A DNA stretch of 64,000 nucleotides. It comes from a virus. How positions within the stretch are numbered: the stretch's first letter is position 1; each line of letters starts with the position of its first letter. The notes beneath the pieces are model-generated. The model made no database searches and was not told where the DNA came from. It saw nothing but the letters and a program-made list of their open reading frames with translations. Where the stretch lies: IMG/VR virus record IMGVR_UViG_3300046171_000155, one strand, 5' to 3'. A program made the translations under genes and the position numbers. Positions 26,109 through 54,971 of the stretch are shown here, one piece after another.

Positions 26109-29100
26109 TTATGCAACCCTTGCGTATAGAGTATACGTCTCGACCACATTAGTTAGTGAGTCAGAGATTGTTGCACCTACGTAGTTACCTAGGAACGATC
26201 GTGCGTAGTTACCTACGAAGTCACGGTTATAGTTTCCTTCGAATCCACGAGTATAGTTACCAGTGAAGTCACCTACGTATGTTGAAACACGATTACGTGA
26301 GTAAGCACCTGAGTAAGCAGATGTTCTGATACGTGCGTATGCAGATACGCGGACACGAGAGTAGTTACCTACAAAGTCACGAGAGTAAGTACCAGTGTAC
26401 TCACCTACGAAACCACGGTTGTAGTTACCTACATAGTTCCCTGCGAAGTCACGCGAGTAAGCACCTGTGTATTCACCAACGAATCCACGAGCATAGTTAC
26501 CTACATAATCACCAGCAAATCCGCGAGTGTATGCACCAGTGTATTCACCAGCGAATCCACGTGAGTAAGCACCTGTGTACTCACCTACGAAACCACGGTT
26601 ATAGTTTCCTACGAAGTCTCCGACAAAGTCACGAGCATATGCACCAGTGTACTCACCTGCAAACGTTCTTGCGTAGTTACCTACGAAGTCGCCGGCAAAT
26701 TGACGTGTGTACTGACCTGAGAAAGTACGCGCATAGTTACCAGTGAATGTTGTGTTATACGTACCAGCATATTCACCAACGAAACCTCTTGCGTAGTTAC
26801 CAGTATAGTCACCAGCGAAGTTACGGTTGTAAGTGCCAGAGTAAGCACCAGTGTACTCACCTACGAATCCACGAGAGTAAGCACCAGTGTACTGACCAGA
26901 GAATCCACGAGAGTAGTTACCCACATAGTTTCCACCGAAGTTACGTGCATAGTTACCTACATAGTTACCAGCGAAGTCCCCAACGAAATCACCGACGAAG
27001 TTGCCAGCGAAGTTGCGTGAGTAGTTGCCAGTAAATGTGCGAGAATAGTTACCAGTAAAGTCACCTGCAAAGTTAGTCACACGATCACGAGTGTATGCAG
27101 AAGAACGGTTGCGGACATATGCAGATACACGAGTTCGTGCGTATGCAGAGTAACGAGTGCGTGTTGATGTGCGAGTGTACTCACCAGTAAAGTTACCAGC
27201 AAAGTCACCTGCGAATCCACGCGCGTAGTTACCAACAAAGTCACCGACAAAGTCGCGAGCATAGTTGCCGCTGAAGTTACCTTCGAAGTTAGTTACACGA
27301 TCACGAGTAAAGTCACCAACATAGTTGGTTACACGAGTACGAGCATATGCTATTAGCATAGGTTGCGGTGAAAAGACCTGAGTCCTGTTACGAGTGTATT
27401 CGCCTACGAAGTCGCCTGCATAGGACCCAGTACGTGTGTAGTTACCAGTATTCGTGTATACTGCAGTGCGGTCACGAGTGAATGCACGAGCGTAGTTACC
27501 AGTGTAGTACAATGTACGAGTGTAGTAACCAGTGTTTGTAGAAGTACGTGTAGAAGTACGCGCATAGTTACCTGTATAAGATGCAGCGCGTGTACGAGAG
27601 TAGTTACCCACAAAGTTACCAGCGTAGTTAGTTACACGAGTACGACCGTAGTTACCAGTATAGTTACCTGCGCGAGTACGACCGTAGTTACCTACGAAGT
27701 TTCCAGTATAACCAGTTGCACGAGTTCGTGTGTATGCAGATGCACGATTACGCGTAAAGTTACGCGAGTAAGCGCCTGAGAAGTACTGGGTTCTCGTATA
27801 TGCAGATGCACGATTACGCGTAAAGTTACGCGAGTAAGCGCCTGAGTAGTACTGGTTTCTCGTATAGTTACCTGTATAGTTGCCAGCGTAAGAAAAATTA
27901 TTGTTATAAGAGAACGCATTTTGGGTAATTGAATAAAACACCTGTTGTCCAAGAGCGCTCTGATATGTACCACGCGACCAACTCATTCCGTTACTATTCG
28001 ATAGTGTTGATGCACCTGCGGTACCGATTGCTCTACTAAATCCGTTCCAATAAGCAAAAGCCATATAAGATTCATAATCAATTTCCCAATAAGTGCTATA
28101 TGCAACATATGTTGGTCCCTGTGCAGCCACACTTACTGTTGAGGTTCTAGTAGATGTTCGAGTGGAAGTTCTCGTAAAGGTTCCTACGCGACTATAATCT
28201 CCACCGTATGCACGTGAGTAGTTACCAGCAAAGTTGCGTGAATAAGATGCTGTGCGACTATAATCTCCACCGTATGCGCGTGAATAGTTGCCTGTAAAGT
28301 TACGTGAATAGTTACCTGCGAAGTTTCCAGTATAACCAGTTGCACGAGTTCGAGAATAGTTACCTGCATATGAGAATGCGCGGTTACGTGAGTAGTTACC
28401 AGCGAAGTTGCCTTCAAAGTTAGTAACGCGATCACGAGAGTAGTTACCTACATATGATGCAGCACGGTTACGAGTATAGTTACCTACGAAGTCACCTGCG
28501 TAGTATAGAGTACGAGTATATGATGGCGTAGTTGCATATGCGGCAGAATAGTTACGAGCATAGTTGCCTACGAAGTTACCAGTGTAGTACAATGTACGCG
28601 TATAGTTCAATGTACGAGTTGAAGTACGTGTTGAAGTACGCGCATAGTTACCAGTAAAGTCACCAGTGTAGTTGCCAGCATAGTTACGAGCATAGTTTCC
28701 TACGAAATCGCCAGTAAATGTAGTTGCATAGTTACCTACAAAGTTTCCGGCATAGTTAGTAACACGTAGTCGGGTAAAGTTGCCGACATAGTTAGTAACG
28801 CGTGTACGAGCATAAGCACTGTAACGAGTACGAGTAGATGTACGAGTTGAAACACGAGCATAGTTACCGACATAGTTGCCAGCAAAACCACGTGAGTAGT
28901 TACCTACAAAGTTACGTGCATAGTTGCCTTGGAAAGAACGCGAGTAGTTTCCTACGAAGTTACCAGCAAAGTTGGTTACACGGTTACGAGTATATGTTGA
29001 TACACGTGCACGAGAATAAACACCAGCAAAGTTGGTTACACGATCACGAGTGTAGTTAGTTACACGGGTGCGTGTGTAATCTGCAGAGTATGCAGAGACG

Positions 29101-30650
29101 CGTGTACGAGTTGAGGTACGAGCATACGCAGAAACACGGTTACGCGAGTAAGTTCCCGCATAAGCAGAAACACGGTTACGTGAGTAAGTGCCTGAGTAAG
29201 TACCTGTGTATGATGAAACGCGTGTGCGAGTATAGTTTGCAGAGTATGAAGAACTGCGTGTACGCGAGTAAGTACCTGCGTATGAAGAGACACGACCACG
29301 AGTGTACGAAGATGCACGACTACGTGAGAATGTTCCGGTGAAGTTAGTCACACGGTTACGAGTGTATGTTGATACACGTGCACGGTTATAAGTTCCTGCG
29401 AAGTAACCAGTAAATGCGGTCAATCGGTTACGAGTATATGATGAAACTCTTGTGCGAGCATATGTGCCCGAGTACGCAGAAGTACGAGTTCGCGAATAAG
29501 TTCCTGAGTAAGCAGAAACGCGAGTACGACCGTAGTTGTCTGAGTAAGACGAATTACGAGTACGCGAGTAAGTACCAGTGTATGAAGATACGCGAGTACG
29601 ACCATAGTCAGCAGCATATGCTGAACTGCGGTTACGTGAGTAAGTACCGTCATAAGTTGAAGTACGCGTACGAGCATAATTACCTTCAAATCCACGAGTA
29701 TAGTTACCAGTGAAGTCACGCGTATATGCACCAGTGTAATCCCCCACGAAAGTTCGTGAGAAAGTGTTGACACTGTTGCGAGTATATGATGAAATGCGGT
29801 CACGACTATATGCAGAAATACGAGTACGAGCATACGAAGAAACACGGTTACGAGTGTAATCGGTATCTATGATTGTGCGTCGTGAGTTCTCTGCACTACC
29901 ACGAGCATGCCATGTTCCTGGCAAGATAGGTGCACCCTGAGCAGAAGATCTTAACTGATAAGATCCAATTGCGCCTGGGACCGATCGTAATGTCTTAGCT
30001 CGTTGACCTAGAGTAAAAGACATTTGACCGTTGGTCATCTCTTTGAAACCATCAAAGGATGAACCATCATAACAGATGGCGACCGGACGTTCTTCATCAG
30101 GTGCTATGTATGAACCGTCTTTTTGATAAATGTGGTAAGCTGTTGTTGTGCCGTCACCAAGTGTATCGGTGAAGACATTAGAAATAGCAACCTTATAATC
30201 AGGACTTGGTGGAATAGAAGATAGTCTATAAATTCCATTCCATTGGTTTGTTTCCATTGTGCTTAATGCACGAGTTACAAGGAGGTCTAGATCACCATCC
30301 GTCATTTCATAGAAACCCGGATTGTCACCTAGCTCGTAATAACCAACAGGACGTACAAAATTTTCTCCAGACTCATCAGCAGTACCGCCTACTTGCTTTA
30401 GCGTAGTAGTTACGGTGGTACTAGTGATGTTAGATGCAGGGTGTGTTCCTGCCACTTCATTGTAGTATGTATCTACAAATGAACCAATATTAACACCATC
30501 AGTAAGACTGAGGTTGCCTGTGTCACTAGCAGCGGCCGCTGTTAGTGCTTCAGATACGGCATACGCAAGATATTCTTCTTGCGAAGGCGTAAATTCCTGT
30601 AAGTCACCATTAGCATTTTGAATTTTTAGTGGAATACTAGATGTTGACAC
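26109..30650 (-). CDS. Giant tetrapeptide-repeat virion protein A (1513 aa): globular base, two arms of about 570 aa and a central tip domain
   Basis: 4-residue periodicity (xRxR, xSxY, xGxY, xRxF) over about 1150 aa; own late promoter and terminator. Confidence 0.75.
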   Translation of the reverse strand: MSTSSIPLKIQNANGDLQEFTPSQEEYLAYAVSEALTAAAASDTGNLSLTDGVNIGSFVDTYYNEVAGTHPASNITSTTVTTTLKQVGGTADESGENFVRPVGYYELGDNPGFYEMTDGDLDLLVTRALSTMETNQWNGIYRLSSIPPSPDYKVAISNVFTDTLGDGTTTAYHIYQKDGSYIAPDEERPVAICYDGSSFDGFKEMTNGQMSFTLGQRAKTLRSVPGAIGSYQLRSSAQGAPILPGTWHARGSAENSRRTIIDTDYTRNRVSSYARTRISAYSRDRISSYTRNSVNTFSRTFVGDYTGAYTRDFTGNYTRGFEGNYARTRTSTYDGTYSRNRSSAYAADYGRTRVSSYTGTYSRTRNSSYSDNYGRTRVSAYSGTYSRTRTSAYSGTYARTRVSSYTRNRLTAFTGYFAGTYNRARVSTYTRNRVTNFTGTFSRSRASSYTRGRVSSYAGTYSRTRSSSYSANYTRTRVSSYTGTYSGTYSRNRVSAYAGTYSRNRVSAYARTSTRTRVSAYSADYTRTRVTNYTRDRVTNFAGVYSRARVSTYTRNRVTNFAGNFVGNYSRSFQGNYARNFVGNYSRGFAGNYVGNYARVSTRTSTRTRYSAYARTRVTNYVGNFTRLRVTNYAGNFVGNYATTFTGDFVGNYARNYAGNYTGDFTGNYARTSTRTSTRTLNYTRTLYYTGNFVGNYARNYSAAYATTPSYTRTLYYAGDFVGNYTRNRAASYVGNYSRDRVTNFEGNFAGNYSRNRAFSYAGNYSRTRATGYTGNFAGNYSRNFTGNYSRAYGGDYSRTASYSRNFAGNYSRAYGGDYSRVGTFTRTSTRTSTRTSTVSVAAQGPTYVAYSTYWEIDYESYMAFAYWNGFSRAIGTAGASTLSNSNGMSWSRGTYQSALGQQVFYSITQNAFSYNNNFSYAGNYTGNYTRNQYYSGAYSRNFTRNRASAYTRTQYFSGAYSRNFTRNRASAYTRTRATGYTGNFVGNYGRTRAGNYTGNYGRTRVTNYAGNFVGNYSRTRAASYTGNYARTSTRTSTNTGYYTRTLYYTGNYARAFTRDRTAVYTNTGNYTRTGSYAGDFVGEYTRNRTQVFSPQPMLIAYARTRVTNYVGDFTRDRVTNFEGNFSGNYARDFVGDFVGNYARGFAGDFAGNFTGEYTRTSTRTRYSAYARTRVSAYVRNRSSAYTRDRVTNFAGDFTGNYSRTFTGNYSRNFAGNFVGDFVGDFAGNYVGNYARNFGGNYVGNYSRGFSGQYTGAYSRGFVGEYTGAYSGTYNRNFAGDYTGNYARGFVGEYAGTYNTTFTGNYARTFSGQYTRQFAGDFVGNYARTFAGEYTGAYARDFVGDFVGNYNRGFVGEYTGAYSRGFAGEYTGAYTRGFAGDYVGNYARGFVGEYTGAYSRDFAGNYVGNYNRGFVGEYTGTYSRDFVGNYSRVRVSAYARIRTSAYSGAYSRNRVSTYVGDFTGNYTRGFEGNYNRDFVGNYARSFLGNYVGATISDSLTNVVETYTLYARVA

Positions 30651-30709
30651 GATATCGCTCTCTTTAAGTTAAAGTTAGTTTTGCCATCACTGCAGTAATG
30701 ACATAGGTA

Positions 30710-30717
30710 TATTTATA
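30710..30717 (-). promoter_or_regulatory. Late promoter TATAAATA
   Basis: Exact consensus upstream of repeat protein A. Confidence 0.8.
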
Positions 30718-30718
30718 A

Positions 30719-30743
30719 TAAAAAATCCCCTAAGAGTTAGGGG
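30719..30743 (-). terminator. Terminator overlapping the chaperone stop codon
   Basis: CCCCTAA-CTC-TTAGGGG followed by A and a T-run. Confidence 0.6.
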
Positions 30744-31215
30744 TTGTAGGCCAATTTACTTCCGCGACGGAAAGTATCGCTCCTAAATTATCTGTAACAT
30801 CTCTTAACGATTGACGGTAATTTTTCCATCCTATTCGTTGTTCTTCAGTCAAAGGACTGTCCGCCACTTGAGTCCAATCTGTTAATGACAATTTTCTATT
30901 TCTTTCTACCCTGATATCGTTCAGTAAATCTTCTCGGTTAAACTCCCATCCACCCAGTTCATTGCTCCAAGTGGCATGCCTATTAGGCGGACTACCAATA
31001 AAAATAAATTCTCCATCCGATGGAACATACCAATAATAACTCATAAAGTGACGAAGATCTTCGCACCCTGCAGGGACTCTATCTTCTGTTATGTGAAGTA
31101 TTAACTCTTTTCCATCTTCAGAGACACCGGCTGGATCTATTTTAAAAGTAGGGTATGAAATCCTATTTATTTTACCAGACACTTTATCTACGTAGACGAT
31201 GTATTTCAATTCCAT
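30730..31215 (-). CDS. Tail fibre assembly chaperone
   Basis: IRVERNRKLSLTDWTQVADSPL...WKNYRQSLRDVT...VNWPTTP. Confidence 0.85.
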   Translation of the reverse strand: MELKYIVYVDKVSGKINRISYPTFKIDPAGVSEDGKELILHITEDRVPAGCEDLRHFMSYYWYVPSDGEFIFIGSPPNRHATWSNELGGWEFNREDLLNDIRVERNRKLSLTDWTQVADSPLTEEQRIGWKNYRQSLRDVTDNLGAILSVAEVNWPTTPNS

Positions 31216-31243
31216 GATGAATTTACCTTTGATATCTGCCTTT

Positions 31244-31251
31244 TATTTATA
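31244..31251 (-). promoter_or_regulatory. Late promoter TATAAATA
   Basis: Exact consensus upstream of the chaperone gene. Confidence 0.75.
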
Positions 31252-31261
31252 TACTTTAAAT

Positions 31262-34200
31262 TCACTCAAGTCCAACATTTTCAGAAGTAAATGTTGTAGT
31301 AAATGTTGGGGTGTATGTTGGGGTGAATGTTGGAGTATATGTTGGGGTATATGTTGGTGTTGTAGAATCTGTTGATGTGCTTGACACCTTAGTGACTGTG
31401 TACTCTCCTGAGTTCAACCATTGACTTCCATTGTAGAAACCAATAGTGTATTGTTTTGTTTGTCCTTCTGCAGGTACATCTGAAACAGTAACGGTTTGAG
31501 CACCATTAGCGTTCTGTATAGAGAATGATTGAAGGAGAGTTAAGTTGTTATTATAAATTCGACCTTGAACTGACTGACCCCCTTGCGTATTAAAATCAAA
31601 CTCTACCGTATGTGTCGTCGCGCTATGGTGTACAACATTTTGAGTCGTTGATAAAATAGTGCCGATGTCATTATCATACAAAGTAAATGACTTTGAGTCA
31701 AGTACTCGCACATTAGATGATCCTCTAGGTTCAGACATTAAAGATGCGGTATTGCCTGTTCTCAATTCAGCAACGAATGTTTCTCCTTGCCAACCAATTT
31801 CAGAATCTTCTTGACTTCCTGTTCCAGTGCGTGTATAATTGCCTATGTAGTTTCCTGTATAGCCTCCTACAAATGTTCTCTCGTAAGCACCACCAAATGT
31901 ATTTGCATAGGAGCTAGATCTAGCGCGAGTACTGGTTCTATTATAAGTGCCTTCGTAAGCGCCAGTATATTCACCAACAAACCCTCTACTATAATTTTCT
32001 TCAAAAGGTCTTGTATAATCACGAGAATAATTTCCAGTATATTCACCGGCGTAGTTTCCAGAATAATTACCAGTGTAGTTAGAACCTATTGATCTAGCGA
32101 ACTCAACAGTATAGTTTCCGATGAATGGTGTTAAAAAATCACCTGTATAGTTACCAGCGAAGTTGCCTACATACTCTCCAACATACCCACGTGCATAGTT
32201 TCCAGTGTAATTGCCTACAAGGAAGTCTCTAGTAAAATATCCAGCCCCTTGTGTAACTCTTGTGCGAGTAAATTCTCTGCTATAATTTCCGCCGAAGTTG
32301 CGTGAATAGTTCCCTACGAAGTTTGCAGTATAGTTTCCAAAATAGTTTCTGCTATAATTACCAACAAAGGTGCCAGCAAAATCACCGACATAATCTCCAA
32401 CATACCCACGCGCATATTCACCTACAAACCCAGTACTATAGGACCTAGTATATGCCGAATCACGACTTCTAGAGTAATCTGTTATTCTTGTTCTGTTATA
32501 ATTGCCCGCAAAGTTGCCCACAGAAGTGCGTGAATAGTTCCCCTCAAAAGTAGAAGTTCTTATGAGAATGAAGTTTCTACTATAGTATAACGTTCTAGTG
32601 AAGTTGCGTGAATAGTTGATAGCATAATCTATGGATCTTGTATAATTACCTGTAAAGTTTCCAGCAAACCCTCTTGAATAATTACCTACATAATAAAGGG
32701 TTCTACTATAACTAGAGGACCTTACTCTAGCATACCCATCATGCGGAACCTCATATTCTATAGGATCACCATTTATATCAGTCTCAGGTAATGTAGATAT
32801 TCTGGTAGATGCATAGTATCCAGTTCCAGTTCTTGTGCGAGTGTATCCACGAATAAAGTCCCTCGCATAGTTAAAGTCTCGCGAGTAAGTGCCTGTAAAC
32901 GGAGCAGTAAATTCACTGGAATATGTCGCGCCGTTGGTAAATGATTGAGTACGATCCCTAGTAAAATTACGCGTATATTCAGTAGTTGTTCCAGTAGGGG
33001 CCGCGGTAGAACTTGTGGTTCCTTGACCAACTTCATAATACTTGGTGCCACCTATTGTAGCGATTAAATCACCTCTCCAGTAATAAATGTTATCGTTACC
33101 TTTTAACTTAGTTGGGCCGTTGCCATAATCCCGCGTGTCATTAAGTACTTTCGTTGTTCCGTTCCATTTAATATTGGTGACATGTACTGTGATCGAAAAC
33201 CCTTCGGAATTACTAGTATTAGTATCAACTGAGAAGAAAGTGTTGTTTGCAGTGTAAAAATATCCATCGCCAATGGTACGTGTATATCCACGAGAATAGT
33301 TACCAGTAAAAGTACTAATTCTTCCTGCTGCAGCGAAGTCGCCAACATAGTTGCCTGTGTAAGTGCCTTCGTAACCAACAGTTCTCGTAAAGTTGCGTGT
33401 GAATCCACGAGAATAGTTTCCTATATAATATAAGGTTCTTGTAGAGTCGGCTGGGAAATAAACTCCAGTAAATTCTCCGACATAAGAACCGACTGTTGTT
33501 CTGGTGCGACTATAGGCAGAATATCGCGTACGGGTAGATGTGCGAGTAAATTCTACTGCTGGGTTTACATAATTCCCAAGATAATTTCTAGCGTATGACC
33601 CCACCCTAGTATAGTCACCAGCATAGTTACCAGTGTAACTTGCGCTAGTCGTTCTCGCATAATCACCTACAAAATTCGTAACTCTGGTTCGCCCGTAGTT
33701 GCCAACAAAGTTCCCAGTAAAAGTTGCAGTATATGTACTAGAGTAATACTCGTTACGAGTCACGCCTCTAGTGCGACTATATGTAGAGTAACGTGTGCGA
33801 CTATATGTTACCGTACTTGGCATTCTAAAATAATACGCAACATCACCAGTGGGAAAGTCTCTAGAGTACTCTTGTGGTCCAGTTAATATAGCATTTCTTG
33901 TAAACTCTCTAGCGTAATATGCTGTATAGGATACAGTACGATCTCTGGTATACGCAGAAACTCTCGACCTTGTATAGTTTCTACTGTAGTAGCCAATATA
34001 TGATGCACCATAACTACGAGCATACGATGAAGTTCGGGTAGCTTGTCTGCTTCGGTTGTAGGTAGAGTAACGTGTACGACTATATGTCACCGTACTTGGC
34101 ATTCTAAAATAATACGCAACATCACCATTGGGAAGGTTTCTAGAGTACTCTTGTATTTCAGTTAATGTAGAATTTCTTGTGAAGTTTCCTGTGTAGGTCC

Positions 34201-35575
34201 CCAAGAACTCTCTAGAGTAATTCGTAGTATCTGTTCTGCTGTATCCCGCTACAAATGCAGAGGTTCTGGTTCTTGAATATGTCGCAGAAAAAGATCGCGC
34301 GTACCCTTCAACTCTTGTTCTATCATAAGTACTTGTTCTTGTTCGAGCGTATGCTCCAGAATACTCTCCGGTATATTCTCCAACATAATTACGAGCAAAA
34401 TCTCTTGAGAACGACCCTGCTACACTTCGAGAGTATGAAGATATTCTATTTCTTGAATATGTGCCTATGTAATCAGCAACATTGGTATATGAGACTGATC
34501 TCGATGAGGTGGGAGAAGTTGTTGTGAAGGTTGCGCTTTTAGTATCACCAAAGAAAGCTACTCTGTCCGACCCTAAGTCGTTCCCAGAACCAGAAGTTTG
34601 AAACACTCGAACATGATATGCACCTTCTTCAGAAGTATTCGCATTGAATGTAATAGAACTTCCTTCTGTAATTGCAGATCCTGATTGATATGTCAGAGAT
34701 CCAGTAGCGTTTTGATCTCCGGAACCGTCACCATCTGAGTCAACATCACCGCCACCACCAGGAGGTTCATAGGTACCAGACCCACCAGTTCTCAAGGTTG
34801 CGCCTAGAAGACTGCCTGTAGGATAAACTTTGAGTCTCTGGTCGCCATTTTGTAAATCCACAATAGCATCATAAGCTGAAGCTAATGTGCTACCAACCCT
34901 TAGACCAAAAAAGTCCGATCCGTGTGAGTTTTGAGCAGACCATTCAATATTTACATATTCGTTCGTATCTTTGGTCATTACATACGAGCTAGATTCTGTC
35001 CCTACTTCATTACTAAGAAGAGGTGGTAACCATGAAACGATATCAAAGTTAAAGTTTGTTCCTAATGCGCGACTATCAAACGCGACTTCTCCATAGCTTG
35101 TGACAATTCGCAGACCTCGGTCTATACTAGTATCATAACGGCTTGGGTCGGCCATAATGGTAGATGCTTTTCTGACAACAAAATAATCAAACTCTGTTTG
35201 CCAGTCATCATAAACTGCGAGTTTCCAATTTTCAAATTGTCCGTCTATTTGAGGGGTGTATGCTTCTATGCCTGTTCCAGTAAAGGTTACCGTTTCCCCA
35301 GAGACATTCATTTTGTGAAGATAAGGTGTATCAAAAGTGACCGTCATGATATCATCTGAAGGCACTTGAATATCAACAGAACTCCAGTCACCGCCACCAG
35401 GCGCGCTAGGGTTCTTAACAAATATCATATCACTTTCTAATAGACCGCCTGGAAGTGTGAACGAGTGTGCACGACCAGCATCTGTGACAATCAGATTAAG
35501 AATGTCCAGTTCTGTGTCCGATACAGTAAATGTTCCACCGGCATCATTGCCTATTATCTTTAATCCATATGACAT
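31262..35575 (-). CDS. Giant tetrapeptide-repeat virion protein B (1437 aa); repeat arms inserted within a Calx-beta/Ig-like domain
   Basis: MSYGL N-terminal domain; same xRxR/xGxY/xRxF units as protein A; C-terminal TPTY repeats. Confidence 0.72.
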   Translation of the reverse strand: MSYGLKIIGNDAGGTFTVSDTELDILNLIVTDAGRAHSFTLPGGLLESDMIFVKNPSAPGGGDWSSVDIQVPSDDIMTVTFDTPYLHKMNVSGETVTFTGTGIEAYTPQIDGQFENWKLAVYDDWQTEFDYFVVRKASTIMADPSRYDTSIDRGLRIVTSYGEVAFDSRALGTNFNFDIVSWLPPLLSNEVGTESSSYVMTKDTNEYVNIEWSAQNSHGSDFFGLRVGSTLASAYDAIVDLQNGDQRLKVYPTGSLLGATLRTGGSGTYEPPGGGGDVDSDGDGSGDQNATGSLTYQSGSAITEGSSITFNANTSEEGAYHVRVFQTSGSGNDLGSDRVAFFGDTKSATFTTTSPTSSRSVSYTNVADYIGTYSRNRISSYSRSVAGSFSRDFARNYVGEYTGEYSGAYARTRTSTYDRTRVEGYARSFSATYSRTRTSAFVAGYSRTDTTNYSREFLGTYTGNFTRNSTLTEIQEYSRNLPNGDVAYYFRMPSTVTYSRTRYSTYNRSRQATRTSSYARSYGASYIGYYSRNYTRSRVSAYTRDRTVSYTAYYAREFTRNAILTGPQEYSRDFPTGDVAYYFRMPSTVTYSRTRYSTYSRTRGVTRNEYYSSTYTATFTGNFVGNYGRTRVTNFVGDYARTTSASYTGNYAGDYTRVGSYARNYLGNYVNPAVEFTRTSTRTRYSAYSRTRTTVGSYVGEFTGVYFPADSTRTLYYIGNYSRGFTRNFTRTVGYEGTYTGNYVGDFAAAGRISTFTGNYSRGYTRTIGDGYFYTANNTFFSVDTNTSNSEGFSITVHVTNIKWNGTTKVLNDTRDYGNGPTKLKGNDNIYYWRGDLIATIGGTKYYEVGQGTTSSTAAPTGTTTEYTRNFTRDRTQSFTNGATYSSEFTAPFTGTYSRDFNYARDFIRGYTRTRTGTGYYASTRISTLPETDINGDPIEYEVPHDGYARVRSSSYSRTLYYVGNYSRGFAGNFTGNYTRSIDYAINYSRNFTRTLYYSRNFILIRTSTFEGNYSRTSVGNFAGNYNRTRITDYSRSRDSAYTRSYSTGFVGEYARGYVGDYVGDFAGTFVGNYSRNYFGNYTANFVGNYSRNFGGNYSREFTRTRVTQGAGYFTRDFLVGNYTGNYARGYVGEYVGNFAGNYTGDFLTPFIGNYTVEFARSIGSNYTGNYSGNYAGEYTGNYSRDYTRPFEENYSRGFVGEYTGAYEGTYNRTSTRARSSSYANTFGGAYERTFVGGYTGNYIGNYTRTGTGSQEDSEIGWQGETFVAELRTGNTASLMSEPRGSSNVRVLDSKSFTLYDNDIGTILSTTQNVVHHSATTHTVEFDFNTQGGQSVQGRIYNNNLTLLQSFSIQNANGAQTVTVSDVPAEGQTKQYTIGFYNGSQWLNSGEYTVTKVSSTSTDSTTPTYTPTYTPTFTPTYTPTFTTTFTSENVGLE

Positions 35576-35886
35576 TATGAAATTCTCAGTGCCATTACAA
35601 TACCACTCTGTGTACCGTAAGAACCACTATTATTTTGTAATTGGAAACCAGTCGAAGTCTTATTAATCACATCTACATATCTAGGGTTGCCCACAAATAC
35701 AATTAATATTTTAGAACCGTCATTGGCATTGGGGCAAGCATATACACTGCTTGTTTGATCTTTAGTCAGACTAAATGAAGAGTATACTTGGATATTAGAT
35801 GTTCGGATCGAATCAGAAAATACTAACTTAGAGGTAGTTGCATCACCATTGATGATTGGTCCATATATTTCTAATCCATACGACAT
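35575..35886 (-). CDS. Small tail-tip/adaptor protein resembling the N-terminus of protein B
   Basis: MSYGLEIYG...LVFSDSIR compared with MSYGLKIIG...FTVSDTEL. Confidence 0.55.
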   Translation of the reverse strand: MSYGLEIYGPIINGDATTSKLVFSDSIRTSNIQVYSSFSLTKDQTSSVYACPNANDGSKILIVFVGNPRYVDVINKTSTGFQLQNNSGSYGTQSGIVMALRIS

Positions 35887-35896
35887 GACGAATTCC

Positions 35897-36292
35897 TTAT
35901 GGTGATTCAGGCCAAACTACATCTTCTAAACTAGAATATTGGTTTGTGATATCCCTCAGTTCTTGACGATAGATTGCCCATATCTCACGATCGTCATCGT
36001 CTAGACCATTATCGTCCATACGAGTCCAATCTGTTTCAGAGAGTAACTGATTACGTTTTTTTCGTAAATTTTCTATACGGATTTTTTCTACAATTTCATC
36101 AGGAAATGGTAATACTAATTGTGCAACAATATCTTTTGATTCGATATACTTATCAACAAGTAAACAAAAATTAATGTCGTATTCTTCTTGAGTAGGAACA
36201 TATAATTTCCAATCATTAGACGGCAATATATTCCCATCAAAAGATTGAGGAGATCCTATTGGGTTTCCGTTTTCTATTCTTATAAATTGCAT
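35897..36292 (-). CDS. Tail fibre assembly chaperone (second copy)
   Basis: LRKKRNQLLSETDWT...WAIYRQELRDIT...VVWPESP. Confidence 0.85.
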   Translation of the reverse strand: MQFIRIENGNPIGSPQSFDGNILPSNDWKLYVPTQEEYDINFCLLVDKYIESKDIVAQLVLPFPDEIVEKIRIENLRKKRNQLLSETDWTRMDDNGLDDDDREIWAIYRQELRDITNQYSSLEDVVWPESP

Positions 36293-36316
36293 TATTCAAT
36301 CTTCCTCTTGGGTATA

Positions 36317-40312: not shown

Positions 40313-40538
40313 TCACTTCCCCTGATAAACTCATAAGCAGTTCTTTGATCTGTCGCATGTCATCTTTTAATCCCTTCACTTCTTCTGTAAGAGAGTTAAT
40401 GTGATCTTGCCTTTCTCGTTGTACTCTGCTTTGGTTCCTCGCGTTTTGTATTTCGGATTTGTTTGTATTTAGTATGGCACCAGTACGACTATCTCGCACT
40501 AGGTTCGCATGCCCCTTTACTTTTACATGACTGTTCAT
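40305..40538 (-). CDS. Conserved small protein of marine T4-like phages
   Basis: VKVKGHANLVRDSRTGAILNTN followed by a C-terminal coiled coil. Confidence 0.65.
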   Translation of the reverse strand: MNSHVKVKGHANLVRDSRTGAILNTNKSEIQNARNQSRVQRERQDHINSLTEEVKGLKDDMRQIKELLMSLSGEVNE

Positions 40539-43500
40539 TAGGTCAGAGTCCTAGAGATACGATAGAACCAAGTGGTGATGTCCATTCCATTTGACGGAAT
40601 ATACTGCTCTAGATCGCCCCTCGTATAAGTGTACCCGTCATTAGCAACAATAGAGACAATCTGTTCCTGATCTAAACCAGCGATTTGCGATGTATTAAAC
40701 TGAACTATTGTATCGTTCCAGTTTAGAATTACGCCGTTAATAGGTTCTCCTTCGCTAGATGTAAATTGTACGATTGAGAAGTAATACTGTGGCGAAACTC
40801 GCGAGAACAGATTAGTCTCTGGTTCAGGTTCCGGCTCAGGTTCTGGTTCTGGTTCAGGTTCCGGCTCAGGTTCTGGTTCTGGTTCTGGTTGTGGTTCCGG
40901 CTCAGGTTGTGGTTCTGGCTCTGGCTCCGGTTCTGGTTCAGGTTCTGGTTCAGGTTCTGGACTTGGAGCAGGAGTATCTACTGGATTCAAGTTTAAGTCA
41001 AACAACTCTCCAAACTTCTGTAGACCGCTAGCAGTGATCAATGAAATCGCACGTAGGTCTGTGATCATTGGTGACTTAGATGAGTTATTAGACTTCATCA
41101 CAATCAAAACTTGGAATACAGTAAATGGTTCTGCGTCTAGTGTGTACTCATAGTCACGGAAAATGTCTGGGTTCTCATCAGTTGGCATTGGAGTATCAAT
41201 TTCGATCTTTGCCCACAACGCATCTGCAAATGCGTTTTCATCTAGAGAAGTACGTGCGTACACTTCAAACTCTGCACCACGTGCACGGTTTGCAGCGAAG
41301 ATAATCTTCAGTCCTTCTGACAACTCATCAATAATCACAGGTGTTGTGATGTGTTGAGTTGCGTTTGAGTTATCGATCACATTCTCTAGAGCAATAACTG
41401 AGACTCGCTGTAGATCAATCACAGGCGAAACTTTAGAGTCGCCAGTCGAAAGGTTCAATGCAAACTCTAGTGTCTTCGCAGTAGAGTTTTGTGATGTCGC
41501 AACTACATTCGGATGAGTGTTGACATTTAGATCATTGAGTGATACAGTTGAAGTCGGATCTTTCTCGTAATTAAGAGGTGTTATCTTACGGTCTGTGCCG
41601 TAAGACGCGCCAACTGTTTTAGTTACAGTCGCTTGAATTGATGTAGAGTTAGGTGTGAATGACTGAACTTGTGGAATGTACTGATCAAACATTACTTGCT
41701 GAGTTGCAGTTACGTTATTACCGCCACCCTGCGCAGAACCTGTCGCATTCGTCGCCACTTGAATTGTATATCCGTCCCATGAAGGGAAATTAACTGCAAA
41801 TGATCCGTTTAAGTCACTATCTGTAAGTCCGCCCACGACACTTGATACATCTGCGAATGTAACTGTATCACCTTCAGTGAACCCGTGACCTTGGTGTTGT
41901 ACCTTAACTATATCTGATCCTGCAGTTGTCTCAAATGGACTCTGGATCAATGTGACCTTTGGAAGTTCTGCGTTCTCTAGGTGTAGTACACCATCAAATT
42001 CAAACTCTGCACGTTCTAGTTCAAACATCAAATCCTTAGTTTGATCTGGCGTCCAAGTCGAACCGTTCTGAGACATAAACAATGAACCCAGTGTTGGTTG
42101 ACGTGACACTCGCTCTTCACGAGATGGACCTAGGACGAACTCATATGTCTGAGCAGTGTATACATTATAGTCTACTGATTCTGCAAGCAACACTATAGCA
42201 TATTCTTCGCCTGGAGTCAAGTAAATTGGTTGATCAAATTCAACAACTGTCGGCCGAGTTCTGACTGTAGCGATATCAGTCTCTTCAGTAAGTGGCGTTA
42301 CTGGAATGTTAGCCGGATCTACGAACTTAACTGATCCTGGAACTAGACGATTCGTAGGAACGCCATTCTCTACAGCACGGATTTGAACCTGCATAGGAAT
42401 GATAGAGTCTTTACTCTCTACATAGACACGCGCTTTAGTGATAAAGATACCGTTTGGATTCTCTACTTGATCAACGAAGAATGTCTGAGCAAGAGGATCT
42501 CGCCAGTAAGTTGTTTCAATAACTTCTGTTGTGCGTATTGTGCGTTGGACTGTTTGAATCGTACCGACCGAAGTGTATCCGGCACGGCTGATAGAAGTAG
42601 CGCCACCATCGTTATTCAAGTTGATGTCAAGCAGTTTAAATTCTTGACGACCCGTACGGAAACTAATGTCTGGAGTGTTCGGCAAGAAGAACGAACCGAT
42701 CAATTCACCCTTACTGTCTGTGACTAGATCACCTTTGCCACCTAGTGCAGATGGGTACGAAGTCGCGTTCGCATATTCGTTACCATACTCTGTCGGATCG
42801 TCCGAGAAGTTTACATAAGTAGACTCTGGACGTACCCAATCAGATACATTCTTGTTTCCGAAATAAGCGAACATACGGGTGTTAGGTCGTAGTCCCTGAA
42901 CTCGGAAACTAATCTTGCGCGAGCGCATGAACGGAATAATTTCTACATCCAAGATGCGTTCGCCAATAAATTCTTGAATCGTCTTTGATGTAACTCTAGA
43001 ACGAATTCTTGCATTAGGTCGAGAGAAGAAAGTAGGTAGGTATGTGTTGATACGACGTACAACATTCTGCATAATGTCTGGTAGTCGCTTCACTTCTACC
43101 CATTCGTCTGAAGACGGAGACAACGTCATATGTCCGTTCGATGTGATTACCGCAAACGGGTTGATATTGTCTGTGCCTGTCGCCAGAACCTGAGATACAA
43201 ACTTTGTGCTTGTATGCGGAAGAGTAACGATGTCGCTCTTCTTAGAAATATTGTTGTTTAGGTTCGAAGGGTTGTACGCTAATCGTATCGAGTTTTCAAC
43301 GAACGATGGGCGCAGTAGACCTTCTGGATCAACCGAAGCGCGATACGCTGGGTTGTGTACGTCACAGAAATTCAGTGTGCTGAAGTTGTCTGCGATGAAC
43401 CCTGCCTTAGTACGAGGGTTGCCGTTCGCATCTAAAACTTGCAAGACGTTTGTGTTAGTCTCAAGGAAACTTAGCGCAGTCAATTCATATAGAGTCTCTA

Positions 43501-45976
43501 CACGATCAGACAGCTTAGAGATGTCTTTCATCGTGAATCGACGATTAGGGATGAACATGCTTACGACATCTGAACGGTCAAATGTATATGCGTTCAATGT
43601 GAACTTGTATAGAGGCAATGCGCCCGCAGGTACTTCTGGTTCGCGAGGATCAATAGCAGGTTGTCCGCGAACGACTTGTAGCTCGCCTAACCCTATACCC
43701 CCACGACTGTCTGTCGCGTTCACTACAAGAACATCTGTACGTGGTAAGTAGTAGTCTACCTCATCAATTATAATCGAAGAGGCGTTCTGTGGTAACTCTG
43801 AGATGTCGAAAGGTATTTGTGTTCCGCTAGTAACTCGATCTGGCCTGAAGTCTAACACATCACGTAGAGAGATTGTCTCTCCAGTGCTGAGTGTTGTATG
43901 TCCTGGGATTTCGTTATAATCTACTCCGGAATACGAACTTGCCGCGAAGAACTTGCCACTATTTGTGCGGGCGTAGTAAGTAAAGTTGACTTGTAATTCT
44001 TCACCGCCGGTTGGTAATGTGTACCCTTCTTTTACAATAGCATACGCAATACCATAATAGTTGTCACGTTGACCACCATCAAGTTTAAACTGGAATGTGA
44101 TGTCTTCCCACTCCGTGGCCGCAGGCGGTTTAATCTTTACAGAATCGATCGATATGACATCGACAGCACTTAAATTCACAGAAGTTGCTGCATCAGGTCC
44201 GGACAAAAATACTGAAGTTGTCCCTGAAGTTGCCGTCTTTGCCTTAGGTGCAGATGTTACTTCATCATAGTAAGCGATTGTATATGTTTTAGTATCATCT
44301 AAAATTGGATCTGAATATGTAAATGTGCCGTCGTTGTTTGGTGTAGGCGTGATTGCAAGAATAGGTCCATTTATTTCTGAAATGACCCAACTTCCCTCTT
44401 CAACGCCCCCAACTGTTATTGAATTGCCAACAGGTTGCTCCGCCTTAAACTTTTGGGCGGTGTAAGTAACATTTTGAATACTAGACTGCTCTGGCGACTT
44501 GTACGGTAACGCAAACAATAAATCGTTATTAGATGTACCATACAATGTGGTATCAAATGTTAGAGGTGTTTGGTCGGGATCTGTATCAAACGATAATGGC
44601 CTTAATGGAATATCATTGTTAAACTCATCTCTCAGCGTAGTAACTGCAGAGAAAGGAAAACGTGCATTTCCGCCCGAAGGAATATAGTCCATTTTAATAT
44701 CAAAGAGATATAGACGATATCCAACAGCATCGCGTTGAATGCCTCTAATATGAGCGGAACCTACGGATTGACCAACATCTTGATAAACACCAAGTAAATC
44801 TACTCTGCCAAATGTGTCTAGTTGACCAAACCCTTCAGTACGATCTGGGTCAATGTATACCCAGTTACCATATACCGCCGGCACTGCTTCTAGTTCTTGT
44901 GTACGTGTATCACGCGCCTTCGGTACAGTGATGTCTGTAGTACCGACCTCTAAACGATATCCGTCTACATACGCGACACCCTCTGTCACATCTAGATTCA
45001 GACTTGTTTCATCGTCGTCTAGGTCTTCAAAGATTGCTCTGAATTCTTCTACAACATAATCACCAGACTCTTCTTTTGTACGTAATGCAAGTAGGTCATT
45101 GACTCGGTTGTATGCGTCAAATGTACTAATTTCACGAGTAATAACACCATCAACAATACGAGCAGCGAAGACAAAGTTCTGTTCTGTCGATACTTGATCT
45201 CGTGTTGTAGGAATTAGTTTGATCTGATATCGGTGTGCGCCTGGAGAGGTTAGGTTAGGAACCTCGCCTTGATTGTCGTGTAGGTCTTCGTCTTCGCTTT
45301 CTGTAACGATATTCTGTTCTACGACGAAACCGAAGTCTGCGTCTGGAGTGCTGCTGTACTTATCTATGAATGCACTTCCGCCACTTAGATAAACGAAGTG
45401 CCCTTGTACAAAGAAATCACCAGAAGCAAAGTATGCCTTTGTTCCTTTGCCAGAACCTCTGATTACTATTGGATCGCCATTTGAATCGATAGATGTGATG
45501 TCGTCAGCAACAACCATTGAAGGAACTGTCGCACCGTCAACACGAACAATCGTATCACCCTGCTCAACACGAGGAGCAATAGTTGCGTCTATCACTGCAA
45601 TTGTATTTGTGTATTGGACGTATAACGTGATAGGGTCACTACCAGTAGAATTGTACATCTCTAAGACTTTAAACTCGACCGCTCCGTTTGTTAGCAGTTC
45701 GCCAACAAGAGATTCGTCGTAAACGCTTGTTGAAGTTAGTCGTATATACTCTAGACCATTATCAACCGTCGCACCGCCTGGATTTACCATCGCACCTTCT
45801 TTGAAGATATTCTGACCAAATCGTGCGATCTCTTCGTGAATAATGCGTTGAGATTCTGTTAGTTCTCGCGCTTGTAGTGCGCGACCTGAATTGTACAATA
45901 CACGATGATACCCATCTTCCTTATCATAGAAGTCTCGGTATGTTTCGCGAAAAACTTTATTGGTATAATCAGTCAT
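40538..45976 (-). CDS. Large baseplate-associated structural protein (DUF4815/VrlC-like) with a C-terminal Pro-Glu stalk and tip domain
   Basis: Y.DF...[54 protein letters not shown]. Confidence 0.8.
40818..40962 (-). repeat. (Pro-Glu)n coding tandem repeat
   Basis: 6-bp unit CCA/CCT/CCG-GAA/GAG repeated about 24 times. Confidence 0.95.
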
Positions 45977-45984
45977 CGTGTATC

Positions 45985-47340: not shown

Positions 47341-47391
47341 TATATTTTCCCATTAAAAAGGTATAACTTATATATAGTGGTCGTTTCAAGG

Positions 47392-50300: not shown

Positions 50301-52389
50301 CTTGTCGCGCAAGACCTTCTGCGTCAATACGAGCACCCAAATCGGAATCTATCTGTGTCAATGAAGCGTCTAGTTGTGTAACATCAGACGACAGTATTGA
50401 AAGTGAGTCGCTGTCTTGGTTGATGCGGGTGATTAGTTCTTGACGTGCATCTGCCTCGGCATCGATACGAACACCTAGATCTGAATCAATGCTTGACAGC
50501 GAAGCATCTAGTTCTGTGATGCGTTGCGATTGTATTGTGATGTCGCTATCTGTCAGATCAATCCTAGAAGAAAGTTCGTCACGAGCATTCGCGGCAGCAT
50601 CCAGTTGCGACTGCAAATCCGAATCAAGAATTTGTAAGTCAACGCCTAGATCCGTTACAGACTGAGACAGGATGGATAATGAATCGCTATCTGCGTCGAT
50701 ACGCGAAGTAAGGGAGTTGATTGCATTTGAGTTGGCAGAAATAACTGCGCCGTTGTCTAAGATATCGTTTAGTAGATTACTGTCCAATCCATCTAAGTTC
50801 GCGTTAAGAGCCGTGATACTTTGTGATAGAACTGAAACGCCACTATCAGTAAGGTCGATACGTGCTGTTAGCTCATCACGAGCATTAGCGGCCGCTGCAA
50901 ACCCTACACCCATATCAGAGTCTAAGTTGCTTAGGTCTGCGCTTAGGTCTGTGATAGATTGAGAAACGACCGATAAACCACTGTCTGTCAAATCAATACG
51001 AGCAGTAAGTTCATCACGTGCTCTTGCGCTTGCCGTAAGTGCCGAATCCATTTCAGAGTCTAAGGCGCTTAAGTCTGCACTCAGGTCCGTTATAGACTGA
51101 GAAAGAACAGATAAACCACTGTCTGTCAAATCAATACGAGCAGTAAGTTCGTTCCGCGCTCTTGATGAAGCATCGAAACCGGAATCCATATCAGAATCTA
51201 GAGCGCTTAGATCTGCGCTTAGGTCTGTAATTGATTGAGAAAGCACTGACAGACCGCTATCGGTGAGATCGATACGAGCAGTAAGTTCGTTCCGCGCTCT
51301 TGATGCAGCATCAAGACCTGAGTCCATATCAGAATCTAGGGCACTTAAGTTCGCTTCAAGGTCGATAACAGACTGAGATAAAACTGTTAGGTCGCTCTCA
51401 GTTAAAGTAACTCGAGCAGTAAGTGATTGTATCGCCGTTGAGTTAGCTGCGATGATCGCACCGTTGTCTAAGATAGACTGAAGTAAGTCGCTATCAAACG
51501 TCTCTAGTGCAGCATTGAGTGTTGTTATAGATGAAGAAACTACACTCAAACGATCACTATCTAAATCAATACGAGAAGACAATGATTCACGTGCCGTAGC
51601 AGCCGCAGACAATTTTTCATTCAGGTCTGAATCTAGTATGTTTAGTTCAGCAGAAAGACTTGTAATAGATTGCGACCATATTGAGAAAGTATCTGAATCT
51701 ACATATCCAGCAGTTTGAATAACAGAGATGGCCTGTGCCAAGGCATTAATGTCAGAATCTATGTAAGTCAGTGATGCAGAATCAAGTAGATTTAGAGATT
51801 GTATGAAATCAGAATCAATAAATCCAAGAGCACGTATAGACGCAGAGTCGATTAAATCTAAACCTCGGATCGCGTCTGAATCTAGGAAACCTAATGCACG
51901 AATATCGTCTGAGTCGAAAAGGGTTAGATTATTTAATGCGTCAGAGTCTAAGAATCCTAATGCACGAATATCGTCTGAGTCGAAAAGGGTTAGATTATTT
52001 AATGCGTCAGAGTCTAAGAATCCTAATGCACGAATATCGTCTGAGTCAAGAATACTCAAATTGTTGATCGCGTCTGAATCTAGGAATCCAAGATTGCGAA
52101 TAAAGTCTGAATCGATTCCACCAACAACACCATCTATTAAACTATTCACATACGCAGAGTCTACAGTACCACCACCGCCAGAACCATCTAAGATACTCTT
52201 AATAAAATCTGAGTCTAGTAGCTGCAATAGAAAATCAGAATCGATACCGCCGGAATCACCAATAGCAATCTCTTCAATTAGCTCATAAACCTCTGTGAAG
52301 TTCTCATTGATTTTCTCACCAGCACTTCGTAAAGTGTCTCCAGTGCCATCGTTAGCACCTACGCCGAGATTTAGTTTTTGCTGAGACAT
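47392..52389 (-). CDS. Fibre with a gp9/gp10-type N-terminal anchor, DSD-rich coiled coil and DUF1983-like C-terminal tip (1665 aa)
   Basis: N-terminus NLGVGANDGTGDTLRSAGEKINENF; C-terminus G..FTGF...F.I.A..F.V...PF.V...RVILGQL. Confidence 0.7.
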   Translation of the reverse strand: MSQQKLNLGVGANDGTGDTLRSAGEKINENFTEVYELIEEIAIGDSGGIDSDFLLQLLDSDFIKSILDGSGGGGTVDSAYVNSLIDGVVGGIDSDFIRNLGFLDSDAINNLSILDSDDIRALGFLDSDALNNLTLFDSDDIRALGFLDSDALNNLTLFDSDDIRALGFLDSDAIRGLDLIDSASIRALGFIDSDFIQSLNLLDSASLTYIDSDINALAQAISVIQTAGYVDSDTFSIWSQSITSLSAELNILDSDLNEKLSAAATARESLSSRIDLDSDRLSVVSSSITTLNAALETFDSDLLQSILDNGAIIAANSTAIQSLTARVTLTESDLTVLSQSVIDLEANLSALDSDMDSGLDAASRARNELTARIDLTDSGLSVLSQSITDLSADLSALDSDMDSGFDASSRARNELTARIDLTDSGLSVLSQSITDLSADLSALDSEMDSALTASARARDELTARIDLTDSGLSVVSQSITDLSADLSNLDSDMGVGFAAAANARDELTARIDLTDSGVSVLSQSITALNANLDGLDSNLLNDILDNGAVISANSNAINSLTSRIDADSDSLSILSQSVTDLGVDLQILDSDLQSQLDAAANARDELSSRIDLTDSDITIQSQRITELDASLSSIDSDLGVRIDAEADARQELITRINQDSDSLSILSSDVTQLDASLTQIDSDLGARIDAEGLARQELSTRIDQDSASLSIVSQDVTNLGATLNQIDSDLGVRIDAEATARQALETRVTQDSASLVIVSQDVTNLGASLNQIDSDLGVRIDAEATARQALETRVTQDSAALSIVSQDVTNLGATLNQIDSDLGARIDAEGTARQELSSRIDQDSDSLTIVSQDVTNLGATLNQIDSDLGARIDAESTARSELVSRIDQDSETLSVLSADVTELRVDLNSINDSDLRADIAANGLAMDSMATLIIQTDSDLQVISSRIQELDAALQEGIDSDLVRAILSNTTNELYALVGQNSDELFALAGDVTTLTQSLESKADSGAVISAISTVEDALRSEIRSDSDITSIVDSKITTFDQSLDRVDSDGLVAATNAVKDELRGEMLDSAGSLSITNDRLTGFRTEIGLGEGSDITTLLNDVEDGIRSDIKSDSDILSITNSRLTTFKTELGFGDDSVGKLLNDVEDGIRADIKSDSDILGITNSRLTTFKTELGFGDDSVGKLLNDVEDGIRSDIKSDSDILSITNERLTTFRAEIGIGTDSVGKLIVDAEDRLTQDINSVDSDLSITQGKVTALEVDLAEGGGTFSAIDALDQAITDDSTGLSALQSKITELTADVDSDRGYNAAARSGLSQNISDTESDLSIVQGHVVSLTARLDSGGTTFTAIDALDQAITDDSTGLSALQSKITQLNVNLESGTTFTAIDALDQAITDDSTGLSALQSKITQLNVNLESGSTFSAIDGLQSQITDDSTGLNALQSKITQLQGNLDSDIGAEASARSALELTIKKDSDILSIVNSAIDSFETTLLFDSAGTANSLVNSAKSELRLEIIDSAGIYSISTSAIDSFETALLDSTGAIGSIATAQAGLVQRVNGNSDELQTISQKYFVALDDGNTFTGFEVINGDSVSSFTIKANDFKVVNGTNSSISPFSVNTTTNKVELSNAQVTGSLDIGIENAPGMRITNTAITIHDGTRTRVILGQLS

Positions 52390-52420
52390 GAATAATCTAC
52401 CCGTTAAAGTTTTATTGTTC

Positions 52421-52428
52421 TATTTATA
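52421..52428 (-). promoter_or_regulatory. Late promoter TATAAATA overlapping the upstream stop codon
   Basis: Exact consensus about 30 nt upstream of ATG 52389. Confidence 0.7.
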
Positions 52429-53998: not shown

Positions 53999-53999
53999 T

Positions 54000-54971
54000 T
54001 TATTGCGCCTCTCTTATTACGCCATAGTATTTGGGGTCATTTCCATAAGTGTTTTGTAATGCGCCACGAGTATAAGTTCTTCCATCACTGCCTGTAACAC
54101 TTGTAGGAATATCGTCAAATGAAGGGTAGAAAATTTGATACTTAGATTGATTGTTCCAAACGATGATCACGCTGATCTCTGTTGTACCGTCATCCGGATC
54201 ATCATACTCTGACCACTCATATCTCGGTTCATCTTCACTCCAATGATCAACGCCATCAGGCAAATCTGGTTCTGGTTCTGGTTCTGGTTCTGGCACATGA
54301 GGTGGGTGCGTGTATTCAGATGTTACCCGAATAGGTGGAGAAGATAGATCAGAAAGCGCATATATGTATATCGCACCGACCTTTCCGTCTAGATGCTCAT
54401 CCGGCGCAGTGATGTATAGTCTATTGCCGCTTATGGTTACATCGTGACCGAAAGAATCTTCTCCTGAAGAAGTAGGCTCTGCGTAGTCTTGGTCCCAATC
54501 ATGATCGCGATTGATTCCTAGACCTGAGAGTGTTGTCCACTTAGGAGAGATCAAAGAGTACGAAGGTTTGTATATTGCGTGATCGTATAGAGTGCCTTCG
54601 TCACCTGCCTGAATATCAGACTCTTTATAAATGTCTACAACAGAAACCGTCGTCCATGGAATTGTTGTTGTCATTGACCCTTTTCTCTTGACGATAATAA
54701 AATTGTCGTCTACTGGTTCCGGTTCTGGTTGAGGTTCTGGTTCTGGTTCTGGTTGAGGTTCTGGTTCCGGTTCTGGCTCAGGTTCTGGTTCTGGCTCTGG
54801 TTGTGGTTCAGGTTCGGGTTCTGGTCCTGGTGGATCTACAATAATGCCACCATCGAGATCTTTGATGAAATACAATGTGTTTTCATCTTTCGATGTTATC
54901 GCATCATACTCAGACTGTGTACCAACCCATACGTTGATTGCCTCACCTGAGTTTTGATCTATAATACTCAT
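54000..54971 (-). CDS. Decorating protein: short fibre-anchor motif, Pro-Glu stalks, FG-GAP-like repeat and tip domain
   Basis: [23 protein letters not shown]; two (PE)n runs; [17 protein letters not shown]...GAIYIY. Confidence 0.6.

Follow-up and report, generated by a model that had tools for sequence, protein, structure and literature searches.

The stretch of DNA analysed here, hereafter the window, comprises the 64,000 nucleotides of virus record IMGVR_UViG_3300046171_000155 and represents the structural module of a T4-like myovirus, in which the minus strand carries every gene. Its nearest deposited relative is phage C48C1 (OQ984149, Kyanoviridae), whose capsid protein is 76.6% identical. 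A small domain of about 75 residues, predicted to be all-β, occurs exactly four times in the window, each time on a different carrier protein. Copies A and B lie within long repeat fibres, while copies C and D form the C-terminal ends of two further virion proteins and follow linkers rich in proline and glutamate (Pro-Glu linkers). The copies and their carriers are as follows (residue numbers in amino acids, aa).

26109..30650, minus strand: carrier A, a fibre-like protein of 1513 aa with period-4 aromatic repeats in the stretches aa 271-844 and 908-1488
27912..28124, minus strand: copy A, aa 843-913 of carrier A (P0001), the sole non-repeat island between the repeat arrays of this protein
31262..35575, minus strand: carrier B, a repeat protein of 1437 aa with non-repeat N- and C-terminal regions
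33014..33271, minus strand: copy B, aa 769-854 of carrier B (P0002), at the centre of the repeat arrays
40538..45976, minus strand: carrier C, a virion protein of 1812 aa with DUF4815
40541..40801, minus strand: copy C, aa 1726-1812 of carrier C (P0003), the C-terminus of the DUF4815 protein
40817..40972, minus strand: Pro-Glu linker before copy C, 52 residues, aa 1669-1720 of P0003, located by a pattern search of the translation
54000..54971, minus strand: carrier D, a protein of 323 aa from the baseplate region
54003..54236, minus strand: copy D, aa 246-323 of carrier D (P0004), the C-terminus of the 323-aa protein

Carrier C matches DUF4815 (Pfam PF16075) with an expectation value (E) of 4.4e-53 and 180.9 bits against a cut-off of 30, and it also matches phrog_358 (E = 2.8e-303); the tip lies outside the region matched by DUF4815. 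The Pro-Glu run of this protein in addition draws a spurious Trypan_PARP match. In carrier D, residues 13-37 match Phage_tail_C (Pfam PF24243) with E = 1.8e-13 and 50 bits, the cut-off being 23.7. From its N-terminus this carrier consists of the Phage_tail_C motif, a 40-aa Pro-Glu linker (aa 47-86), a middle domain, a 9-aa Pro-Glu linker (aa 227-235) and copy D, and its gene adjoins genes that match the Baseplate_wedge and gp6-like families. The middle domain shows a weak FG-GAP_2 match (E = 0.0048). Carriers A and B matched no Pfam family. A preliminary description, made from the letters of the window, had proposed that one motif recurs in these four places, and all four of the motif strings that it quoted are found on the minus strand. 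Its coordinates were right for A, C and D, but the span given for B (33030-33270) lies one base out of frame, the in-frame segment being 33014-33271.

Do the four segments belong to one family? Taken pairwise, their similarity is weak. Against the six-frame translation of the window (52,335 aa), B and D find each other at E of about 0.015 and C and D at 0.03-0.15, while A gives non-significant values; B, C and D are nonetheless mutual best or near-best non-self matches. In alignments, copies A, B and C are only about 22-30% identical to copy D. Profiles are far more sensitive in the same six frames. A domain profile of eight sequences finds the four sites and nothing more below E = 0.17, and a profile of 13 sequences finds exactly four sites, namely D (1.4e-34), C (1.1e-25), B (1.4e-17) and A (1.1e-11), with the next match at 0.26. 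A possible fifth copy in an 862-aa protein, which reached E = 0.17-0.23 with one profile, was gone with a richer profile and was rejected. When each copy is left out of the profile in turn, B (E = 1.7e-5), C (1.1e-3) and D (1.2e-9) are still recovered, and a profile of A, B and C alone recovers D at E = 3.8e-6. Members of the family are marked by W-N-(G/N/D) at a turn, by Y-x-R-G after a D-G turn, and by a last strand with Y-Y-x-(V/I). That B, C and D belong together is close to certain.

The predicted fold was examined on copies D and A. The AlphaFold2 model of copy D, made from an alignment of 16 rows, has a predicted local distance difference test (pLDDT) score of 84.5 and a predicted template modelling score of 0.71, and shows six strands in up-and-down order. 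Copy A was modelled within a 191-aa stretch of carrier A that includes about 60 aa of each arm (alignment of 11 rows), and the domain reaches a pLDDT of 84-94. Unrelated folds would have contradicted the preliminary description; in the models of these two copies, a six-strand meander appears at the same aligned columns, though from overlapping alignments. Weak neighbours in the PDB that are common to the two models (7pq5_L, 6hg9_B, 7x80_A, 7dvi_A, 2r6g_F and others) indirectly suggest that the models are alike. In the model, the W-N-(G/N/D) motif sits at a two-residue turn between strands 2 and 3, and D-G belongs to the loop that leads into strand 5. Asn-Gly is well known as a sequence of tight turns. 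As the conserved residues fall at predicted turns and on the strands, they look structural rather than like parts of a shared ligand site.

Copy A is the most distant member. Its sole relative found is the homologue in C48C1 (43.5% identity, E = 2e-6). In a profile-profile comparison with hhalign, A together with this homologue scored 35.6 against the 16 remaining sequences (P = 3e-6, probability 88%), and the alignment is collinear from end to end over 74-79 columns. As controls, 150 column-shuffled versions scored 9.9 on average (standard deviation 2.0, maximum 17.8), and among 150 natural 90-aa segments of the window's proteins those that are not members scored at most 18.7, which places copy A about 13 standard deviations above the shuffles. 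Chance resemblance among β-rich sequences, which the preliminary description had named as the alternative to a family, is thus not what the comparisons gave: B, C and D were recovered in the leave-one-out profiles, and the score of A lies far above the shuffled controls.

An alternative for this copy is that A is not homologous and that short β-turn motifs have converged in an aromatic-rich protein, in which case the family would have three copies in the window. No profile hidden Markov model (HMM) built without A finds A (E above 3), so that its membership rests on the profile-profile comparison; even with A in the profile, the C48C1 homologue scores no better than E = 0.013, and similar local motifs give partial matches in unrelated bacterial immunoglobulin (Ig)-like and transthyretin-like repeat proteins. 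Against convergence stand the collinear profile-profile match and its distance from the shuffles, the presence of all motif blocks in the same order, and the architectural position of A, which is the same as that of copy B. AlphaFold2 also predicts with high confidence that A has six strands and that these align with the six of D; since the input alignments of the A and D models overlap, the two models are not independent, and this agreement is a sign of compatibility rather than independent proof. Judged from the sequence comparisons, A very probably belongs to the family, and we consider its convergent origin quite improbable.

The domain does not match a known family. No member matched below E = 0.027 in Pfam or below E = 0.016 in PHROGs, where every weak match came from one member only, and a search of the ESM Atlas returned no usable match. 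Foldseek gave no clear match to the models either (best E of 0.14 in the PDB and 0.044 in BFVD), and VIA-align 2 against 48,161 chains gave none, with best Z scores of 3.8 for D and 4.1 for A. These fold searches signify the lack of a clear match and not proof of a new fold; on the evidence of the models, the six-strand up-and-down meander of about 75 residues is possibly a candidate for a new small fold. A literature search found nothing on this domain or on phage C48C1.

Several systems bear a partial resemblance. The best match among PDB sequences was the Cache domain of TlpB, a PAS-like sensor (3ub6), which covers the part from W-N-G to Y-Y-x-V over 56 profile positions at a non-significant E of 0.15; the present domain lacks the Cache helices, and PAS structures reach Z scores of only 2.2-2.7. 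The best structural neighbours of the A model come from the Rhs/YD-repeat shell (7pq5_L with Z = 4.1, a root-mean-square deviation of 3.6 and 60 aligned residues; 8qja_A with Z = 3.8), and the D model also matches 7pq5_L, with Z = 3.2. In the domain as in the shell, β-hairpins follow one another, and aromatic residues come after their D-G turns. However, these Z scores are far below the level of about 8 that speaks for common ancestry, there is no RHS_repeat match in Pfam, and the domain would be a unit of three hairpins and not a large shell. Hoc and Big_2-type domains are Ig-like decoration domains on phage structural proteins. Like them, the present domain is an accessory β domain that has been added modularly to several virion proteins and might confer weak surface adhesion; unlike them, it is predicted to be a plain six-strand meander, and no Ig-like or sandwich structure scored above Z = 3.5. 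The sole Ig-related signal was a partial match in many stretches of one Bacteroidota-type Ig_7 protein. We therefore regard the domain as a previously undescribed family in what would be a familiar use, that of a phage fibre tip.

A HMMER search over 1.84 billion representative proteins returned 14 proteins at E ≤ 1e-3, of which 12 are phage proteins. Among the latter, P0005 and P0011-P0015 are D-like, P0016 and P0017 carry the domain at the C-terminal end of a DUF4815 protein, P0007 and P0009 are B-like, and P0006 and P0008 are proteins of 568-581 aa with two tandem copies, a type that is also encoded at locus L009. The two bacterial matches, P0010 (Ig_7 / Por_Secre_tail) and P0018 (transthyretin-like repeats), were rejected as members, as each stretch covers only 33-45 profile columns and amounts to a partial local-motif match. 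Their repeats match the central profile columns in 17 and 4 stretches, respectively, and are probably convergent hairpin-turn motifs, with a remote link being possible. A search for homologous proteins found one close match for D and none for A, and the family profile gave six among longer proteins. Single-domain scans of loci found close relatives and one D-type locus with 42% identity, L009. That the body of the L009-type protein is homologous to carrier B was considered and ruled out, since only the first few residues are similar. In the two-tip protein of about 570-581 aa (L009:1444-3186 on the plus strand, and P0008), some 35 residues form a hydrophobic stretch rich in Gly, Ala and Leu, which looks like a membrane or fusion segment and would be unusual for a virion protein.

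Related contigs combine the domain with carriers in further ways. One contig has four matches: one of the B type, one of a C type that is diverged and preceded by a long Pro-Glu run, and two in a D-like protein of 476 aa, where one copy lies between two Pro-Glu runs and the other at the C-terminus. Another has three matches, one of the C type, one in a D type of 646 aa and one in a further D-like gene (316 aa) adjacent to the latter. In the same profile search of related records, the L009 record has two matches and another fragment has one, while the complete C48C1 genome has the A type only, at the E of 0.013 mentioned above. The DUF4815 homologue of C48C1 matches residues 1-1652 of the 1812 residues of carrier C, and the linker and tip find no match there. 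Searches with tblastn of domains B, C and D, as well as of L009, P0013 and P0017, against 50,697 phage records gave no match, only A matching C48C1, and a megablast search of the D region against phage records found none.

Because tandem copies and extra carriers occur in relatives, and because the copy finds no match on the C48C1 DUF4815 protein, the module appears to be mobile. As far as the sequence searches reach, there is good support for a mobile family that is restricted to a small clade of T4-like myoviruses, most of them uncultured. The proposal of a single, diverged domain family that is represented by the four segments on four different tail and baseplate carriers is upheld by the sequence profiles, by the shared predicted six-strand topology and by these further architectures in related phages.

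The tip and its surroundings do not change at one common pace. When the C type is compared with P0016, the body is 78% identical and the tip 44%. In comparisons of D with P0012, P0014 and P0015, the N-terminus is 78-87% identical and the tip 42-48%, and the middle domain is not detectably similar; with close relatives of D, the middle domain is 84-88% identical and the tip 76%. The tip is thus kept while neighbouring parts are swapped, and it often, though not always, evolves faster than the anchor. D-type proteins (compared with P0012, P0014, P0015 and P0019) keep the Phage_tail_C N-terminal motif and the C-terminal tip and have exchanged the middle domain; one of them, P0019 (646 aa), instead has a fusion to another N-terminal region, about 330 aa long.

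The repeat fibres that carry copies A and B are a more striking feature than the domain itself. Period-4 repeats, in which every fourth residue is aromatic, make up most of both proteins, and the phase is coherent over hundreds of residues, in A in both arms. The domain divides the repeats almost evenly, with 574 repeat residues before and 556 after it in A, and 318 before and 317 after it in B. The orthologue of carrier A in C48C1 (L003:2089-12132) is a protein of 3347 aa that has the same N- and C-terminal sequence and arms nearly twice as long. A manual recount of its segments gave about 1000 repeat residues before the domain and about 1030 after it, a balance that holds despite several other non-repeat inserts in the second half. 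Such extra inserts occur in the second half only, and a segment of about 70 aa appears nearly verbatim twice, at about aa 2010-2080 and about 75 residues further on, which may reflect a recent duplication or an assembly artefact.

The halving of the repeat mass in A, B and C48C1 is what a fibre folded back on itself as a hairpin, with the domain at the turn, predicts, and a position of the domain at the hairpin tip in A and B fits this observation, if indirectly. The preliminary description had placed all four domains at the distal end of an extended spacer. This is correct for C, which follows the 52-aa Pro-Glu run, and for D, which follows a 9-aa run with a 40-aa run further upstream; A and B are central in their arrays and would be distal only under the hairpin model. 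In the same way, the suggestion that the domains stand at different distances from the virion draws on the lengths of linkers and arms, and for A and B also on the hairpin model.

We considered that the domain might be a folding cap that sets register and not a binder. In A and B it would nucleate the two arms and lock their register, and in C and D the same cap would serve as a C-terminal nucleus for folding or oligomerisation, by analogy with the T4 fibritin foldon. The foldon is a C-terminal β unit of about 30 residues that nucleates trimerisation. The two are alike in being small all-β units that terminate an elongated fibre protein of a phage and might determine the register of its long, repetitive shaft; they differ in that the present domain has about 75 residues and six predicted strands, shows no sequence similarity to the foldon and also occurs internally (A and B) and in tandem. 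A cap would account for the position of the domain between equal masses of repeats in A, B and C48C1, for the turn-forming and aromatic nature of the conserved residues, which is typical of a structural core, and for the conservation of the B-type domain, which exceeds that of its arms. An up-and-down meander could, moreover, join its first and last strands and continue into two antiparallel arms. It is difficult to reconcile with C and D, in which a large protein that already has recognisable domains ends in a flexible Pro-Glu tether and the domain, and where there is no register to set. Tandem copies with acidic or Pro-Glu linkers between them also sit badly with a role as folding nuclei. 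Taking the arms of A and B and the nucleus of C and D together, we regard this explanation as rather unlikely, although it is the main rival of a contact role.

The genes around the carriers agree with a location at the tail. Profile matches in the window include the head and tail components major head protein, portal, sheath, large terminase and head-closure protein, and the baseplate components gp6-like wedge protein and Baseplate_wedge protein, with weaker matches to gp8-like and gp9/10-like N-terminal regions. DUF4815, Phage_tail_C, the neighbours (gp6, Baseplate_wedge, gp8 and gp9/10) and two chaperone genes assign the four carriers to the baseplate and fibre region. These chaperone genes are paralogues of the Phage_tail_APC family of tail-assembly chaperones (30730-31215 and 35897-36292, both on the minus strand, with E of about 5e-18 in each case). 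The first immediately precedes gene A, and the second precedes gene B, from which an open reading frame of 103 aa separates it; the pairing suggests a dedicated chaperone for each repeat fibre. The window encodes two more giant fibre-like proteins (16410-22322 and 47392-52389, minus strand). A YadA_stalk match below threshold was obtained for the one of 1970 aa, and a weak match to the T4 gp9/10 N-terminal family, just under the Pfam cut-off, for the one of 1665 aa. After C48C1, the matches of the capsid protein are phages of Stenotrophomonas, Synechococcus, Methylophilales and Prochlorococcus, at about 58-61% identity.

What could such a domain do on four proteins of one particle? The preliminary description proposed adhesin or receptor-sensing domains, which would be a plausible role. 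The reading that we favour, and to which we give an about even chance, is that of a module for contact with the host surface, displayed at several reaches. It is based on the fact that the domains lie at free ends or fibre midpoints, are tethered, have been duplicated in tandem and are exchanged modularly. According to this reading, one all-β domain of about 75 residues, present in paralogous copies, would serve as a module within one small uncultured T4-like clade. In C and D it would have been joined by Pro-Glu tethers to the C-terminal ends of baseplate and virion proteins, and in A and B it sits at the midpoint of period-4 fibres. The result would be a distal, solvent-exposed contact module. 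The analysis shows the homology of the copies, their number of exactly four, their modular distribution, the lack of a known family and the midpoint position; exposure at the tip, binding and the type of ligand are all points that we infer. Surfaces specific to each paralogue would bind structures of the host surface at several reaches from the baseplate, and the tandem copies of relatives would add avidity.

The closest known parallel to such a contact module is provided by exchangeable C-terminal receptor-binding tips and carbohydrate-binding modules. As in these, a small β-rich module forms the distal part of proteins of the fibre or baseplate, has been shuffled between carriers and duplicated in tandem, and the tips of the C and D types diverge faster than the anchor. 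The present module differs in lacking a sequence or fold match to any of them, in that binding is no more than proposed for it, and in occurring four times in one virion on unrelated carriers.

Several observations weigh against a contact module. No sequence or fold match to a known adhesin, lectin or carbohydrate-binding module was obtained in Pfam, PHROGs, the PDB or BFVD (best VIA Z scores of 3.8-4.1; Foldseek E of at least 0.04). The residues conserved across the paralogues are those of predicted turns (N-G, D-G and G) and aromatic strand positions, and define no common ligand pocket. Rapid divergence of the tip is not general: between C and a close relative, body and tip are both 90% identical, and between B and P0009 the domain (63%) is more conserved than the arms (53%). 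Finally, the hairpin topology that would make A and B distal found no confirmation in AlphaFold2, which models the arms of carrier A at a pLDDT below 50.

The contact might also be made within the virion. All copies would then bind one shared site on the sheath, on the baseplate or on each other and would stow or bundle the fibres until a host is met, much as the T4 whiskers hold the long tail fibres. One conserved scaffold on four virion proteins of one particle would suit such docking, and tethers and long arms would permit the copies to reach back to the particle. A shared docking surface is unlikely, however, in paralogues that are only about 22-30% identical to copy D, and neither a partner nor direct evidence has emerged; we consider docking very improbable. 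A combination of roles is conceivable as well, in which one module does two jobs, acting as the register-setting folded turn of two-armed β-ribbon fibres and as their host-contact tip, and would have been copied onto Pro-Glu rods of baseplate proteins. We judge this unlikely as a whole. If it were true, the phage would carry related sensors at several fixed reaches, on arms of about 320 to 1000 repeat residues, in a fold without a solved relative.

The rarity of the domain, which is known from a handful of metagenomic contigs, limits its immediate impact. It would nevertheless justify a new Pfam or PHROG entry and provide a starting point for experiments on expression and binding, and in fibres A and B it shows where the repeats have their centre of symmetry. 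Little is known about the receptor-binding parts of T4-like phages from marine and environmental sources, and a portable tip module of this kind would mark the host-contact proteins in an uncultured clade.

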